Below, in pieces: positions 4,742 through 38,258 of a stretch of 38,270 bases of DNA. The stretch's first letter is position 1, and each line of letters begins with the position of its first letter. A program made the translations under genes and the position numbers. Source of the DNA: Escherichia phage BUCT618. Below the pieces are notes generated by a model that saw nothing but the letters and a program-made list of their open reading frames with translations, made no database searches and had not been told where the DNA came from. Where the stretch lies: sequence record OM735461.1. The stretch is one strand, 5' to 3'.

Positions 4742-4974
4742 ACATCTTCTCAATAATCAATATGGCGCAGGCCGCCAACCCGAAGGCAGAAGTCACCATC
4801 CGCAGCGGTGGTCATGATGCCATCATCATAACCTGGTATTGGGATGGCCAGTACCTGAACCGCAGCTATTGCAAGGCTCGAATGACCGGTCATCGCTTAG
4901 GCGAATATGAGGCGTGGAGAATTGCGTTCAATGCGGTTGCTCAGATTATGGGAGTCGTGGGGTGTGCGAAATGA
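4738..4974 (+). CDS. Hypothetical protein (78 aa)
   Basis: ATGA overlap with the neighbouring genes suggests translational coupling. Confidence 0.45.
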   Translation: MNIFSIINMAQAANPKAEVTIRSGGHDAIIITWYWDGQYLNRSYCKARMTGHRLGEYEAWRIAFNAVAQIMGVVGCAK

Positions 4975-5654
4975 TTATCTGGTCACTATTTGACGGTTCA
5001 GGTCTTATGGTCAAGCCGTGGGCGGAAGCAGGACATACTTGCTATTGTTTCAACTACGACGGAGCTGACCACGGTGACTACGCACGATTGGGCGCAAAAG
5101 TTGAACATGAAAATATCCACTATATAAACGCGTGGATTGATAATAAATTCGACTTCGACGTTGCGCCGGATATTATTTTCGCGTTCCCTCCGTGCACAGA
5201 CTTAGCCGTTAGCGGCGCGTCTCATTTCGAAACGAAGCGTAAGAAGAATGCAACGTTTCAGGTAGAGGCCGTGATTACATGTAAAGTGGCGGCTCGTCTG
5301 GCTAAAAGGTACAACGTACCTTATATGATTGAGAACCCGGTTAGCGTTCTTTCGTCTTTATGGCGCAAGCCTGACTACTCGTTCAATCCGTACGAATACG
5401 GCGGCTATTTACCCGAAGACGACACGCATCCAATGTTCCCTGAATACATAAAACCACGTGACGCATACCCTAAGAAGACATGTATTTGGGCCGGTAACGG
5501 TTTTGTCATGCCTGTTAAATCATGCGTTGCCGTCGGTGACGGGTACTCAAACCAACACAATAAATTAGGCGGTAAATCAGTGAGGACAAAAACAATCCGC
5601 AGCCTGACCCCGCGCGGATTTGCCCGTGCGGTATTTGAGGCTAACAAAGGTTGA
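4971..5654 (+). CDS. DNA cytosine-5 methyltransferase (compact)
   Basis: Motif I LFDGSG, catalytic PC motif FPPCTDLAVSG, ENV-like MIENP. Start placed at ATG 4971 (ATGA overlap) rather than the ORF-track start 4914. Confidence 0.65.
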   Translation: MIIWSLFDGSGLMVKPWAEAGHTCYCFNYDGADHGDYARLGAKVEHENIHYINAWIDNKFDFDVAPDIIFAFPPCTDLAVSGASHFETKRKKNATFQVEAVITCKVAARLAKRYNVPYMIENPVSVLSSLWRKPDYSFNPYEYGGYLPEDDTHPMFPEYIKPRDAYPKKTCIWAGNGFVMPVKSCVAVGDGYSNQHNKLGGKSVRTKTIRSLTPRGFARAVFEANKG

Positions 5655-32343: not shown

Positions 32344-32649
32344 ATGAAAGAGTTTAAAGGTACGCCTGGGCCGTGGGTTGCAGATAAGACATCTCGCGCG
32401 ATAGGCCCAATTAGCCATGATGATGACCAGTCTTACGGAATTTTAATTCCTGTTGCCTGGGTGGAGTTTGACCAAGATGAGGGGATTAAGGCGTCAAACC
32501 AACGCCTCATCGCTGCAGCGCCTGAGTTGCTGGAGGCCTTGAAGAAAATGGTCAGCAAAGCGTATAAGCAAAACTGGAATGATGCATACCCAGAAGAGAT
32601 TCAATCAGCACAGGCAGCAATCAACAAAGCACTGGGAGAAAAACAATGA
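32344..32649 (+). CDS. Hypothetical protein (101 aa)
   Basis: First ORF after the promoter. Confidence 0.5.
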   Translation: MKEFKGTPGPWVADKTSRAIGPISHDDDQSYGILIPVAWVEFDQDEGIKASNQRLIAAAPELLEALKKMVSKAYKQNWNDAYPEEIQSAQAAINKALGEKQ

Positions 32650-33527
32650 AACTTATCGACTTGCTGGTTAAAGAGTTACCGCAGTGGGGCGGGTGGCCTG
32701 AAGGTGCGATAAATGCTACACAAGATAAAGATGGGGTGGTGAATTTCTATGAAGGTGCAACACCTGTATTTGCCTCGGTCGCCTGGCTTGGTGGTGACTG
32801 GTGCGGAAATGAGTTTAACACAATTACGGCCAGCGACTACGACACCGCCATTGTCACCCGAGAACAATACGAATCCGCGCTCGCAGCCAGTAAAGCCGTT
32901 GTTGGCCATGACGGATGGATTCAATGGGCTGGCGGTGAGTGCCCGGTTGATAGTGACGCAATTGTTGAAGTCAAATACCGAAATCCGAGCCGGAACAAAT
33001 TCAATAATGATCGTGCTGGCGATTTTACCTGGTCACATGATGGATTTGGCGGTGACATCATCGCCTACCGCCTGCAACAGCCGACGAAATCAGAACAGGC
33101 TTGCGATGACGCTGCGGAAGCTGATGACGAAGCAGACCTGAACGAGTGCATTGGTCAGGATATTGATATTCCGGAATGGAATGGTGAAGGGTTGCCGCCA
33201 GTTGGCACTATCTGCCAGGCCAAAGTCCCGCGCTCAATTACTGGGTGGGAATGGCGAAGGGTGAAGGTTGTCGAGTCTGGCATCCCAGGCGCAGAGAAAG
33301 AGGTGCTTGTTTATGACCTGGAGACAACAATCCCATCATGGGCAGATGAATTCCGACCACTCCGCACCGAAGCGGAAAAGGCGCGTGAGAAATTGGCCGC
33401 GTCGCTTCATATTGCGGCTGGCGCCAGTCCAATCGAATTAAACGGCATAGGGACTTTATACTTCAAGCTGGCTGATGCCATCATTTCAGGAAGCGTTTTC
33501 GGAACTACATTCAAGGCGGGTAAATAA
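32646..33527 (+). CDS. Hypothetical protein (293 aa)
   Basis: ATGA overlap with the upstream gene. Confidence 0.5.
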   Translation: MKLIDLLVKELPQWGGWPEGAINATQDKDGVVNFYEGATPVFASVAWLGGDWCGNEFNTITASDYDTAIVTREQYESALAASKAVVGHDGWIQWAGGECPVDSDAIVEVKYRNPSRNKFNNDRAGDFTWSHDGFGGDIIAYRLQQPTKSEQACDDAAEADDEADLNECIGQDIDIPEWNGEGLPPVGTICQAKVPRSITGWEWRRVKVVESGIPGAEKEVLVYDLETTIPSWADEFRPLRTEAEKAREKLAASLHIAAGASPIELNGIGTLYFKLADAIISGSVFGTTFKAGK

Positions 33528-33751
33528 TGGATATTGACGTAGTTAACCATCCATCGCACTACACTAAGGGCAGAATCGAGTGCATTGATGCCATTGATTC
33601 AGCCACCACCGGAAAATCAGGAATCGAAGCCGTATGCGTGGCAAATATCATTCGTTACCTGTGGCGCTACGAAGAAAAAGGTGGCCTTGAAAGTGTAAGG
33701 AAGGCGCAGTGGTATCTTAACAAATTAATCTCTGAACTGGAGTCAAAATAA
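33527..33751 (+). CDS. DUF3310-like phage protein
   Basis: [16 protein letters not shown] ... [13 protein letters not shown] ... [10 protein letters not shown]. Confidence 0.55.
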
Positions 33752-34275
33752 TGGCATCGAGAGGCGTTAACCGTGTAACAATCCTGGGCAACCTCGGCAA
33801 TGACCCGGATGTAAAATACACCGCATCAGGAAGCGCAATCGCAAACCTGACGGTGGCAACATCTGAGTCATGGAATGACAAGGCAACCGGTGAGAAGAAG
33901 GATTTGACCGAATGGCATCGCGTCGTGCTGTTCGGCAAACTGGCAGAGGTGGCAGGTGAATACCTCCGAAAAGGTTCGCAAGTCTATATTGAAGGCCAGC
34001 TTCGAACCCGCAAATGGACCGACCAATCCGGCCAGGAGAAATACACCACAGAGATTGTTGTCGGCATGAATGGGGTGATGCAGATGATTGGCGGAAAGCA
34101 GGATAGCAAGCCTCAGCAACAAAGCGGATGTGGGCAGCCTCAACAACCAAAGCCGCAGCAGCAGAGCAAGCCAGCACCAGCCGGGCATAATGTTCCTCCA
34201 GTGGACTTTTCTGACGACATTCCGTTCGCTACCATTGGTTTGCAGTACGGGAAATCGAGAATCTACGCCCTATAA
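33751..34275 (+). CDS. ssb: Single-stranded DNA-binding protein with C-terminal extension
   Basis: OB-fold N-terminus ([16 protein letters not shown] ... [13 protein letters not shown]), Gln/Pro-rich linker, DFSDDIPF tip, then 15 further residues before the stop. Confidence 0.85.
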
Positions 34276-34293
34276 TTATCACCATATCAACCA

Positions 34294-34314
34294 ACCCGCT
34301 ACGGCGGGTTTTTC
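34294..34314 (+). terminator. Rho-independent terminator after ssb
   Basis: ACCCGC-tacg-GCGGGT hairpin followed by TTTTT. Confidence 0.6.
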
Positions 34315-34331
34315 ATCTTTTACGCAATCTG

Positions 34332-34360
34332 TTACAATTTCAAGATTGTTCCAGTATATT
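34332..34360 (+). promoter_or_regulatory. Candidate promoter
   Basis: TTACAA, 17-bp spacer, TATATT, about 50 nt upstream of the ATG at 34409. Confidence 0.4.
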
Positions 34361-34408: not shown

Positions 34409-34726
34409 ATGCCAAACAGGATGAACATGTCTACAGTCGAAGAGCGGCTAACGAAAGTTGAGACGAATCTTGCGAACCTTGCAGATGCACAAAGGGATGT
34501 TAGCCAGGCTTTAAACAAGGTGTCTGAGTCCATCCACGCCATCCAGATTAGCATTGAGCGCCAGAACGCGAGTATTCATCAGATAGTTGAGTTGCGTCGT
34601 GATGTTGATGCAATGTCGAAGGATGTGGATAAGCTAAAAGGCAAGGTGTGGTGGTTAGGCGGCGTGGCAGCCGCCTGTACTTTCATTATCGTGAACTTCT
34701 CGCGCATGAAAGACTTCTTTCACTGA
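34409..34726 (+). CDS. Coiled-coil protein with C-terminal transmembrane anchor (XhlA-like architecture)
   Basis: Start placed at ATG 34409 after a purine-rich RBS; the ORF-track upstream extension is unlikely to be coding. Confidence 0.5.
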   Translation: MPNRMNMSTVEERLTKVETNLANLADAQRDVSQALNKVSESIHAIQISIERQNASIHQIVELRRDVDAMSKDVDKLKGKVWWLGGVAAACTFIIVNFSRMKDFFH

Positions 34727-36356: not shown

Positions 36357-36395
36357 TTGGTTAAGCGAGGTTATGACGATTATGGAGAAGTTTCG

Positions 36396-38258
36396 ATGAT
36401 TACAAATGATGGTGTTAAGTTAATTCATGGTGATTGCCTGGAGGTGCTGAAGGGAATGCCAGACAATTCCGTGGATAGCATAGTCACAGACCCGCCTTAT
36501 GGACTTTCATTCATGGGGAAGAAATGGGACTACGAAGTTCCTGACCAGGCTATCTGGGAGGAATGCCTACGCGTCCTTAAGCCTGGTGGTCATCTGCTGG
36601 CCTTTGCTGGTACACGAACGCAGCACCGCATGGCTGTTCGCATTGAGGACGCTGGGTTCGAGATACGGGACATGATTGCATGGGTATATGGCAGCGGGTT
36701 TCCTAAAAGTGCGAACGTTTCAAAGCAGATAGACCAGCAAGAAAGAAACAGATGGGTTAAAATCATCAAGGCGATTGATAAAACAAACCTTTCTGAAATG
36801 GCTGAACTATGGATAAACTCAAGAAATGCGAATGCTGCGGGGCTTTCATTCCAAAGGAATCAAACCGAAGCTGGGCTCAATACGCAAAAAAACGGTTTTG
36901 CTCACGGAAGTGTTCTGCTTCAAGTCAGTCACAAAAACTGCGATGCGCTTGCAGTCATTGCGGAACTAAATTCGACCGAAGCCCATCCCACAAGCGAGGG
37001 GAATTGCAGTTCTGCACAATCGAATGCCGAAAGCACTATCACGGCATCGAAAAGCCATGCGACCACTGCGGAAAAATCACCAGAAAACCGCGAAGCAACG
37101 CTGTGCATGGTGGATTTTTCTGCTCTACACAGTGCATGGGGCTGGCAAGGCGAAAGCAGGGCGGACAAACTCAAGGCCGTCGAAGCCCTGAAGATTTGGC
37201 TTGGAAGAAAGCCATCCTCAAGGCGGGAGGCTACAAGTGCGCTATGTGCGGCACTGACAGACGACTTGAAGCGCATCACGTTAAGCCAATCAAAGACTTT
37301 CCTGAGCTACGACACGACACGTCAAATGGCTTGTGCGTCTGCCATCAGTGCCACTATTACGGAATCCACGGCGGCAAGCCTAATTTCATTCACGGCAGGT
37401 ACTCTAAAAAGTAAGGCCATCGACAAGGCGGCTGGTGCGGAGCGCGAGGTGGTCGGCAGCTACGAGGTGACTCGCGACATGTCTGGCGGATCATGGGCGG
37501 AACTTCACGGAAAACCGAACAGCGCCAAGATGCACAACATAACCGCACCAGCCACCGACGCCGCAAAACAGTGGCAAGGCTGGGGTACAGCCCTAAAGCC
37601 AGCACTTGAACCAATCACCGTAGCACGCAAGCCGTTCAAAGGCACTGTGGCGGCTAACGTGATGGAGTGGGGAACGGGGGCGCTGAATATTGATGGGTGC
37701 AGGGTGGTGGGGGATGTTTGGACTAGAAGAACACCTTATAAAGACAACATCAAAGGCGGACAGCTTCACGCCGCAAAAAGTGAATCAACCTACGCATGCG
37801 GCCCTCAATCTTGCAATGAATTGGGGCGCTGGCCCGCGAACCTGATTCACGACGGAAGCCATGAGGTGATGTCGGAGTTTCCTGCAAATGTTGTCGCGAA
37901 CGGAGGTAGCGGCGTATTTAACCAGCACGCATGGATGCGCTACGAGACGCCGCAGAACATCAATCGCAGCAAAGGCAGCGCAGCTCGCTTCTTCTACTGC
38001 GCTAAGGCCAGCAAGAAAGACCGAGGCGAAGGTAATAACCACCCTACCGTCAAGCCAACCGACCTCATGGCGTACCTTTGCCGCCTTGTAACGCCTCCTG
38101 GTGGCGTGGTTCTCGACCCGTTCATGGGCAGCGGTAGCACCGGCAAGGCAGCCGTGCGCGAAGGCTTCCGCTTCATCGGCATTGAAATGGACGCGGAGTA
38201 CCTTGCAATCGCTGAGGCGAGAATTGCGCATGATGCAGGGAAGCAGACTGAGAAATAA
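36396..38258 (+). CDS. DNA N6-adenine / N4-cytosine methyltransferase (beta class) carrying a 630-nt in-frame insertion
   Basis: DPPY motif (SIVTDPPYG) near the N-terminus and FxGxG motif (DPFMGSGSTG) near the C-terminus. Start placed at ATG 36396 after GGAG (ORF track begins at TTG 36357). Residues about 140-350 are Ser/Thr/Ala-rich low complexity. Confidence 0.75.
   Translation: MITNDGVKLIHGDCLEVLKGMPDNSVDSIVTDPPYGLSFMGKKWDYEVPDQAIWEECLRVLKPGGHLLAFAGTRTQHRMAVRIEDAGFEIRDMIAWVYGSGFPKSANVSKQIDQQERNRWVKIIKAIDKTNLSEMAELWINSRNANAAGLSFQRNQTEAGLNTQKNGFAHGSVLLQVSHKNCDALAVIAELNSTEAHPTSEGNCSSAQSNAESTITASKSHATTAEKSPENREATLCMVDFSALHSAWGWQGESRADKLKAVEALKIWLGRKPSSRREATSALCAALTDDLKRITLSQSKTFLSYDTTRQMACASAISATITESTAASLISFTAGTLKSKAIDKAAGAEREVVGSYEVTRDMSGGSWAELHGKPNSAKMHNITAPATDAAKQWQGWGTALKPALEPITVARKPFKGTVAANVMEWGTGALNIDGCRVVGDVWTRRTPYKDNIKGGQLHAAKSESTYACGPQSCNELGRWPANLIHDGSHEVMSEFPANVVANGGSGVFNQHAWMRYETPQNINRSKGSAARFFYCAKASKKDRGEGNNHPTVKPTDLMAYLCRLVTPPGGVVLDPFMGSGSTGKAAVREGFRFIGIEMDAEYLAIAEARIAHDAGKQTEK
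36783..37412 (+). mobile_element. Putative in-frame insertion carrying the HNH gene, bounded by duplicated KAIDK codons
   Basis: AAGGCGATTGATAAA at 36768-36782 and AAGGCCATCGACAAG at 37413-37427 both encode K-A-I-D-K; the 630 nt between them is a multiple of three. Confidence 0.45.
36809..37414 (+). CDS. HNH endonuclease with three N-terminal zinc-ribbon repeats, nested in the +2 frame of the methyltransferase gene
   Basis: Three C-x2-C ... FC-x3-C repeats, then CAMCGTDRRLEAHHVKPIKDFPELRHDTSNGLCVCHQCH. Confidence 0.75.
   Translation: MDKLKKCECCGAFIPKESNRSWAQYAKKRFCSRKCSASSQSQKLRCACSHCGTKFDRSPSHKRGELQFCTIECRKHYHGIEKPCDHCGKITRKPRSNAVHGGFFCSTQCMGLARRKQGGQTQGRRSPEDLAWKKAILKAGGYKCAMCGTDRRLEAHHVKPIKDFPELRHDTSNGLCVCHQCHYYGIHGGKPNFIHGRYSKK

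Follow-up and report, generated by a model that had tools for sequence, protein, structure and literature searches.

The ssb locus of Escherichia phage BUCT618

The DNA analyzed here, referred to as the window, is a stretch of 38,270 nucleotides from Escherichia phage BUCT618 (OM735461.1). The window ends have no terminal overlap in common, and the window is probably a near-complete phage genome, since related contigs cluster at 38–41 kb. These relatives are phage contigs that carry capsid, portal, terminase, endolysin, DnaB-like helicase, and DEAD helicase genes. [quoted passage not shown]

33527–33751, plus strand: 74-aa DUF3310 protein (Pfam PF11753, E 2.1e-16), upstream of ssb
33751–34275, plus strand: ssb gene, 174 codons and TAA (open reading frame and domain matches)
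33766–34065, plus strand: OB-fold ssDNA-binding domain, residues 6–105 (PF00436)
34087–34197, plus strand: disordered linker rich in Gln/Pro/Gly, residues 113–149 (from the sequence; AF2 pLDDT <50 from residue 113)
34198–34227, plus strand: acidic tip (SSB-Ct motif, DFSDDIPF), residues 150–159, internal and not terminal
34228–34272, plus strand: post-tip tail of 15 codons (homologue conservation, dN/dS, and related tails on other scaffolds)
34228–34288, plus strand: segment missing from close relatives that end at IPF (alignment with contigs L003 and L005)
34293–34318, plus strand: intrinsic-terminator-like hairpin AACCCGCTACGGCGGGTT (34293–34310) with a T run to about 34318, also present in tailless relatives
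34310–34360, plus strand: two overlapping sigma-70-like promoter matches before the next gene (consensus matches only)
34409–34726, plus strand: 105-aa coiled-coil protein with a hydrophobic C-terminus, the next gene downstream of ssb

The start codon of ssb overlaps the stop codon of the DUF3310 gene (TAATG). Residues 6–105 of the product match Pfam PF00436 (E 7.5e-37, 126 bits against a cutoff of 26), and the whole 174-aa protein matches phrog_44, "single strand DNA binding protein" (E 9e-61). A Gly/Gln/Pro linker and then a D-[FW]-x-D-D-I-P-F motif are both present in residues 113–159. By its domain and motif, BUCT618 ssb encodes an intact bacterial-type phage SSB. However, bacterial SSBs usually have IPF at the extreme C-terminus, and here the IPF codons (34219–34227) are followed by 15 more residues, encoded by GCT ACC ATT GGT TTG CAG TAC GGG AAA TCG AGA ATC TAC GCC CTA (34228–34272), with TAA at 34273–34275. 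An earlier sequence-only reading had described an SSB that runs 15 residues past DDIPF, and the open reading frame bears this out, with exactly the sequence claimed. The tail is encoded on a phage genome and not at a uvrA-linked housekeeping locus.

The genes just upstream of ssb are mosaic in this family (window 32646–33751 compared with L003 9315–10001 and L362 1785–2501). BUCT618 has a 293-aa protein of unknown function and the separate 74-aa DUF3310 protein; its relatives have either one 228–238-aa protein with DUF3310 or 211–296-aa proteins without it. A megablast search with the ssb gene against isolated phages and E. coli genomes gave no match. The sole nucleotide match of the window to isolated phages was a methyltransferase segment: positions 4961–5621, the only such stretch in the first 25 kb, are about 92% identical to a cytosine-C5 methyltransferase region found in Salmonella and Escherichia phages of the Kagunavirus type, a similarity that suggests recent exchange of this module. 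Another DNA methyltransferase ORF (phrog_67; 633 aa, 36357–38258), whose first possible start is TTG, ends 12 nt before the window does.

Presence and absence of the tail among close homologues

The BUCT618 SSB was compared with its best 120 homologues (78–94% identity) in a collection of 5.8 billion proteins. In the alignment with SSBs of related phages, about 100 of the 120 have the same 15-residue tail with conservative variation (consensus A-[PST]-[FIVLM]-G-L-Q-[YH]-G-K-[SA]-R-[IV]-Y-A-[LI]); these proteins are 172–177 aa long, most of them 173–175 aa. The sequence-only reading had named a common occurrence of the extension in homologues as something that would refute it. Such an occurrence is seen here, and the feature is not a peculiarity of the BUCT618 sequence. 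The remaining homologues, about 20 of the 120, are 158–159 aa long, are 89–94% identical, and end directly at IPF. No intermediate lengths or partial tails were found among the 120 nearest homologues, which have either a 15-residue tail or none; aberrant, seemingly frameshifted tails are rare and occur among distant fragments. The tail was found in about 100 independent cluster representatives, many of them on 38–41 kb contigs from different samples, and a metagenome scan yielded one further close relative only.

The tailless members belong to the same phage family and have the same neighbor genes as the tail-bearing ones. Indeed, the 105-aa coiled-coil gene, which is not a homing endonuclease, lies downstream of ssb in both. 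At the DNA level, the two forms differ by a clean indel of about 50–60 nt between the IPF codon and the shared terminator (alignment with L003 and L005), which contains the tail, TAA, and about 13 nt. A point change in a stop codon is excluded, because the difference is an indel of about 50 nt. Stop-codon read-through or frameshifting was also rejected, as there is no stop present and the tailless relatives do not have the tail DNA altogether. These alignments indicate that the tail is gained or lost as a discrete cassette of about 50 nt where the tip codons meet the terminator region.

Selection on the tail and the tip

Nei-Gojobori dN/dS values were obtained for eight genes of BUCT618's own family, none of which has a downstream endonuclease. 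The values were 0.156 for the OB fold, 0.160 for the linker, 0.045 for the tip, and 0.143 for the tail (pS 0.32, pN 0.057), the last being a rough value that comes from 15 codons in eight sequences. Synonymous changes within this family affect Gly4, Gly8, Ser10, Ile12, Ala14, and Leu15 of the tail. Across sub-families (25 genes), synonymous divergence of the tail is saturated (pS 0.70, pN 0.27), and the pN/pS of the tip is 0.046. In addition, Leu5 (TTG/CTC), Ser10 (AGT/TCG), and Arg11 (CGA/AGA) are retained despite codon-family switches. We conclude from substitution patterns that the tail peptide is under purifying selection, because the dN/dS of the tail is low and residues are retained through these switches. 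It should be noted that tail DNA in the LPYPRHAIYVI sub-family is about 97% identical among loci with mosaic flanks, which points to DNA-level forces too, such as a recombination boundary or recent spread, beside peptide-level selection.

Spread and sub-types of post-tip tails

Viral contigs were scanned with a degenerate DNA pattern, and a profile search, a genome scan, and tblastn were then run. This led to a wider family of tails, A-P-Φ-[GT]-L-x-[YF]-[GP]-x3-Φ-[YH]-x-Φ, of 14–16 residues, located directly after IPF wherever tested. Their position logo is A-P-Φ-[GT]-L-[PQM]-[YF]-[PG]-[RK]-x-x-Φ-[YH]-x-Φ, and the variants are the BUCT618-type 15-mer (with an optional S), APIGLQYGRNFLHCF, APIGLPYPRHAIYVI, APVTLPFPRHAIHAI, APIGLMYPRHFINVI, and APIGLQYPALLNCM. 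The BUCT618 tail begins A-T-I-G-L-Q-Y-G, in agreement with A/S-P/T/S-Φ-G/T-L-x-Y/F/H-G/P after IPF. Its 15 residues, ending in I-Y-A-L, also fit a length of 14–16 with a Φ-[YHN]-x-Φ end and one extra residue allowed; such an extra terminal residue is present on some tails (...YALS, ...YALA). The most conserved stretch is the N-terminal half (A-P-Φ-G-L-x-Y-G/P) and not the extreme C-terminus. The junction residues F-A-P are almost invariant across tails, and the tails end in hydrophobic residues (...RIYAL, ...AIYVI, ...LLNCM). A 48-aa profile search returned mostly short fragments, and a single-sequence scan of 1.84 billion representatives, which was underpowered, gave 11 matches.

The tails are carried by SSB-type proteins of phages, prophages, and phage-like plasmids of Gammaproteobacteria. 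The hosts given in the records are Enterobacterales, Vibrionales, Alteromonadales, and Aeromonadales, with shorter "AP..." tails in a few other Proteobacteria. At least three scaffolds bear a tail: several phrog_44 SSB sub-types, phrog_4477, and phrog_3284. The family profiles of the latter two end at IPF, and phrog_4477 is a two-OB protein of about 400 aa from rV5-like phages that has no Pfam SSB match. Of 83 viral loci with the LPYPRHAIY variant, about 80 have IPFAPIG immediately before it, and the other three are truncated remnants. A tip-plus-tail query was covered to at least 80% in 151 isolated-phage and 121 plasmid records, while a gene of the g341c type, annotated plainly "ssb", is present in at least 301 of 5,426 complete E. 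coli genomes. Among 152 sampled loci, no uvrA-linked housekeeping ssb had a tail (0/38), versus 40 of the 114 other ssb genes (Fisher p = 2.4e-6).

Extensions of 5–9 residues of the "AP..." kind were also seen after DDIPF on five genome contigs, L028, L049, L071, L077, and L090. Their sequences are APLHLLMGA, APVKLI, APQVL, APHTLP, and APLTLRRHW, and the hosts are Pseudomonas, Sneathiella, Acidisphaera, a Myxococcales MAG, and an Eremiobacterota-labelled contig. In the LPYP sub-family (L190–L268), the acidic part of the tip is relaxed (DWDDPIPF, DWDDNIPF, DWDDQIPF, EWIDDIPF) in comparison with the near-invariant DFDDDIPF, and IPF-AP is fixed.

The SSB of E. coli (tip ...PMDFDDDIPF) resembles that of BUCT618 in its OB fold, its Gln/Pro/Gly-rich linker, and a near-identical acidic tip, with about 60–69% identity to enterobacterial-type phage SSBs. 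However, the E. coli tip is terminal, while that of BUCT618 is followed by 15 residues. The same architecture of OB fold, linker, DDIPF, and 15-residue tail is found in the SSBs of Salmonella phage g341c (gp30), Escherichia phage mEpX2, and the Vibrio phages V039C and vB_VpP_BT-1011. The two Vibrio phage proteins (62–64% overall identity) end in DDIPFAP[VI]GLQYGRNLLHVI and have tails of the same GLQYG sub-type as BUCT618, while g341c and mEpX2 have another sub-type, APVTLPFPRHAIHAI. No study of the tail in these four SSBs was found in the literature searched. The same holds for papers on any of these tails, in a literature search that covers few subscription journals, so that an earlier description is possible; database records name the tail-bearing proteins simply SSB or hypothetical. 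The post-tip tail is common and not unique, and it appears to be uncharacterized and biologically meaningful.

Homing endonucleases and mosaic DNA at the tail

The rV5-like phrog_4477 proteins (Bas49_0089, nieznany_212, and PVP-SE1 gp39) mirror the BUCT618 family in that a tail is present or absent among near-identical proteins. The two-OB SSB-like protein of Bas49 (EmilHeitz) ends with almost the tail of BUCT618, and a homing endonuclease gene starts within this tail, at the ATG contained in its Tyr-Gly codons (TAT GGC). Bas52 (RudolfGeigy) is near-identical to Bas49 and has neither the tail nor the endonuclease. The two differ by one insertion of about 655 nt, made up of the 45-nt tail and the endonuclease, directly after the IPF codon (L276 2440–3260 versus L278 7105–7290), and divergence is raised in the 30 nt that precede it, in the tip codons. 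The same arrangement of tail and endonuclease is found in phage nieznany and several viral contigs (L009, L011, L021, and L025). An endonuclease gene starts in the tail, or in one case just after it, in 9 of 18 non-redundant loci of the GLQYG type, and in eight loci its start codon is in the Tyr-Gly codons. Thus, the tail in phrog_4477 arrives with a homing endonuclease gene that starts inside it, whereas BUCT618 has no endonuclease. Its Tyr-Gly codons (TAC GGG, not TATGG) contain no start codon and are followed by the terminator and then the 105-aa coiled-coil gene. The close relatives of BUCT618 likewise have the tail without an endonuclease and without an ATG in the tail.

Different downstream genes, one of them not an endonuclease, start at the Tyr-Gly ATG of the tail (L016 from 4656 onward, L276 2559, and L277 2556). 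They share their first residues, M-[AE]-K-[VA]-E-S-T-H..., and these shared starts may reflect translational coupling to ssb.

In Shigella phage Sf6 (AF547987; L274 2083–3045), SSB gene 27 ends in ...DSDIPF, and the HNH endonuclease gene 26 begins 9 nt later. The gene 26 product ends in ...PVTLPFPRHAIHAI, which is the tail that comes directly after DDDIPF-A in the SSB of Salmonella phage g341c (L275 2581–3087), as if an endonuclease gene had been inserted precisely between tip and tail. In Vibrio phage K40 (L364 730–805), a second copy of the IPF codons ATTCCGTTC lies 7 nt beyond the stop codon of ssb, and an HNH endonuclease gene that is a homologue of Sf6 gp26 starts 56 nt downstream. The repeat resembles an insertion footprint at the tip codons. 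In Proteus/Providencia-type prophages (L190–L268), a block of about 65 nt (45 nt of tail codons, TAA, CCAAAGGATATAACC, and ATG) is about 97% identical in DNA, and its flanks are mosaic, with identities of below 60% to 90% for the ssb body, 72% for the tip codons, and 64% for the 300 nt downstream. The gene set downstream of the block is variable, and remnants of the block without ssb are found in L207 and L222. From this pattern, the block behaves like a module boundary beside a variable gene slot.

Together, the junctions suggest that a group of endonucleases inserts at the IPF-codon/stop junction of ssb-type genes and that co-conversion can carry the tail to new genes. In T4, the free-standing homing endonuclease gene segG lies beside gene 32, adjoining a phage SSB gene. 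Free-standing endonucleases near phage ssb genes are similar to those described here in their location at the 3′ end of ssb and in a co-conversion-like divergence of the flank, but in the tail loci the endonuclease gene begins inside a conserved SSB extension that is itself translated.

Structure, motif, and partner searches

AF2 gave a poor model of the full-length SSB (mean pLDDT 50, shallow alignment). For the tip-plus-tail peptide, with an alignment of 73 sequences, it gave no secondary structure, and the peptide is predicted to be disordered. In a sequence search of the PDB, the tip alone was matched. No gene cluster within 10 kb was convincingly linked to the presence of the tail (96 loci); the best positive neighbor cluster (11 versus 6, p = 0.026) is a gene whose ATG lies in the tail.

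Several known motifs were considered for the tail and rejected. The beta-clamp-binding motif is Q-L-[SD]-L-F or Q-L-x-L-x-L; the tail has no such spacing, and other sub-families have Pro or Met in place of its Gln6. An ssrA-like degron or ClpX C-motif-1 (L-A-A-COOH) has only its non-polar character in common with the tail, which ends in R-I-Y-A-L. A PDZ-type or "new tip" recognition of the last residue did not fit either, as extra terminal residues are tolerated. Indeed, because some tails have one extra residue, recognition is not strictly by the terminal carboxylate. Finally, the tail is too short and too rich in Pro and Gly to be a membrane-targeting amphipathic helix.

Possible roles of the tail

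Docking of SSB-Ct to its partners needs both the free alpha-carboxylate and the side chain of the last Phe, as in complexes with ExoI, chi, PriA, RecQ, and RecO. This free C-terminal Phe is regarded as the universal site at which well over a dozen genome-maintenance proteins dock, and it is also a drug target and a design constraint in recombineering. The sequence-only reading had started from the premise that the extension buries the tip. Established SSB biochemistry, in which the free terminal Phe docks, agrees with it to the extent that the extension must change how the tip is used. Three options had been offered for the extension, namely processing of the protein, a role of its own, or a stop codon lost by error; the last is refuted, and the evidence favors a role of its own over processing, which remains the alternative.

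The explanation that we prefer, tentatively and with slightly less than even confidence, is that the tail is a short linear motif that caps the tip, so that the Phe carboxylate is no longer free, and that re-routes or gates the binding of partners. Generic docking to the host SSB interactome would be blocked by the tail, because such docking needs the free carboxylate of the last Phe. The tail and the still-conserved tip would together bind one conserved partner, probably host-encoded, and a hub motif open to all partners would thereby become private or gated. A short linear motif is proposed because the tail is sequence-specific, predicted to be disordered, and present on unrelated scaffolds in unrelated phages without a linked phage gene. 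Homing endonucleases inserting at the IPF codon/stop junction probably spread it between scaffolds by co-conversion, which would account for the same tail on unrelated scaffolds. A precedent for the private use of an SSB tip is found in phage HK620, whose SSB recruits its cognate annealase Sak4 through its last six residues (NDYPPF) and thus has a C-terminus tuned to a specific partner; however, this motif is terminal, ends in Phe, and has no post-tip extension (PMC5928155). Against the short linear motif, it should be noted that close relatives, as well as the well-studied Sf6 and Bas52, do well without the tail, which means that its function is dispensable or conditional. In an extended version, which we regard as doubtful but conceivable, the tail is a portable switch: endonucleases would graft it onto phage genes ending in host-like DDIPF codons, and the hub motif would become private or gated, either because the tail recruits a single conserved host factor or because it conceals the tip from host partners and SSB-sensing defense.

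Other explanations make the tail a transient, a silent, or an idle peptide. The protein could be a pro-SSB, or carry a degron, if its non-polar C-terminus were read by a cytoplasmic protease (ClpXP, ClpAP, Lon, or FtsH) that either trims the tail to expose DDIPF in time or keeps the SSB short-lived. The capped tip is still under very strong selection (dN/dS 0.045; pN/pS 0.046), as expected if it is later exposed; the F-A-P junction is almost invariant, the tip and tail are predicted to be disordered, and the hydrophobic tail ends are in line with the fact that non-polar C-termini destabilize proteins in E. coli. We nevertheless consider this unlikely, as there is no ssrA-like Ala-Ala end, conservation is highest in the N-terminal half of the tail and not at its end, extra terminal residues (...ALS, ...ALA) are tolerated, and we know of no protease site at F|AP. 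If instead the tail had no specific partner and only silenced the host-like tip, the phage would avoid titrating host SSB partners or triggering defense. Presence and absence among near-identical phages would fit such a conditional, arms-race trait, and phage SSBs have been reported as triggers of several defense systems. Among them is the tailless two-OB protein Bas52_0087, a reported trigger of DRT10 (preprint), whose sister Bas49_0089 bears the tail. Yet any extension would cap the tip, and a specific 15-residue pattern has been kept from Vibrio to Salmonella phages while synonymous divergence became saturated; moreover, a permanently silenced tip should decay, but the tip is the most constrained part of the protein. 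A pure cap thus seems distinctly unlikely.

The tail could also be an idle peptide, translated by accident because recombination-boundary DNA, or the 5′ flank of a cassette with a homing endonuclease, lies in frame with ssb. This agrees with the single insertion of tail and endonuclease in Bas49 relative to Bas52, with the endonuclease start codons in the Tyr-Gly codons of eight loci, with the tail sitting on the endonuclease in Sf6, and with the block of about 97% identical DNA between mosaic flanks in Proteus/Providencia, which spans the tail, the stop codon, and the next ribosome-binding site. However, BUCT618 and its whole family have the tail without an endonuclease and without an ATG in it. 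In this endonuclease-free family, the dN/dS of the tail is 0.14 with synonymous changes at six residues, and no truncated tail was found among the 120 nearest homologues; Leu, Ser, and Arg persist from one sub-family to another although the codon-family switches alter the overlapping frame. The selection data thus weaken an incidental origin for BUCT618's family, and we find this explanation very improbable. As for the suggestion that a sequencing or assembly error had removed the stop codon after DDIPF, such extensions are indeed rare in textbook SSBs, but the same in-frame tail, under purifying selection, is present in about 100 independent cluster representatives from different samples, and what sets the tailless relatives apart is an indel of about 50 nt and not a point change. 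An error is refuted by these data and has a negligible chance of being the cause.

The tail challenges the assumption that SSB tips are always terminal. With a capped tip in 40 of the 114 sampled ssb genes that are not uvrA-linked, it points to an unrecognized way for phages to tune or hide the SSB hub. This bears on how phage SSBs trigger or evade defense systems, on the choice of phage SSB/annealase pairs for genome engineering, and on the possible transfer of a functional peptide module from one gene to an unrelated one by homing endonucleases. Since the BUCT618 family and Bas49/Bas52 provide natural near-isogenic pairs that differ in having the tail, the question is directly testable. If the tail is indeed a portable switch, its presence or absence would be an arms-race polymorphism.
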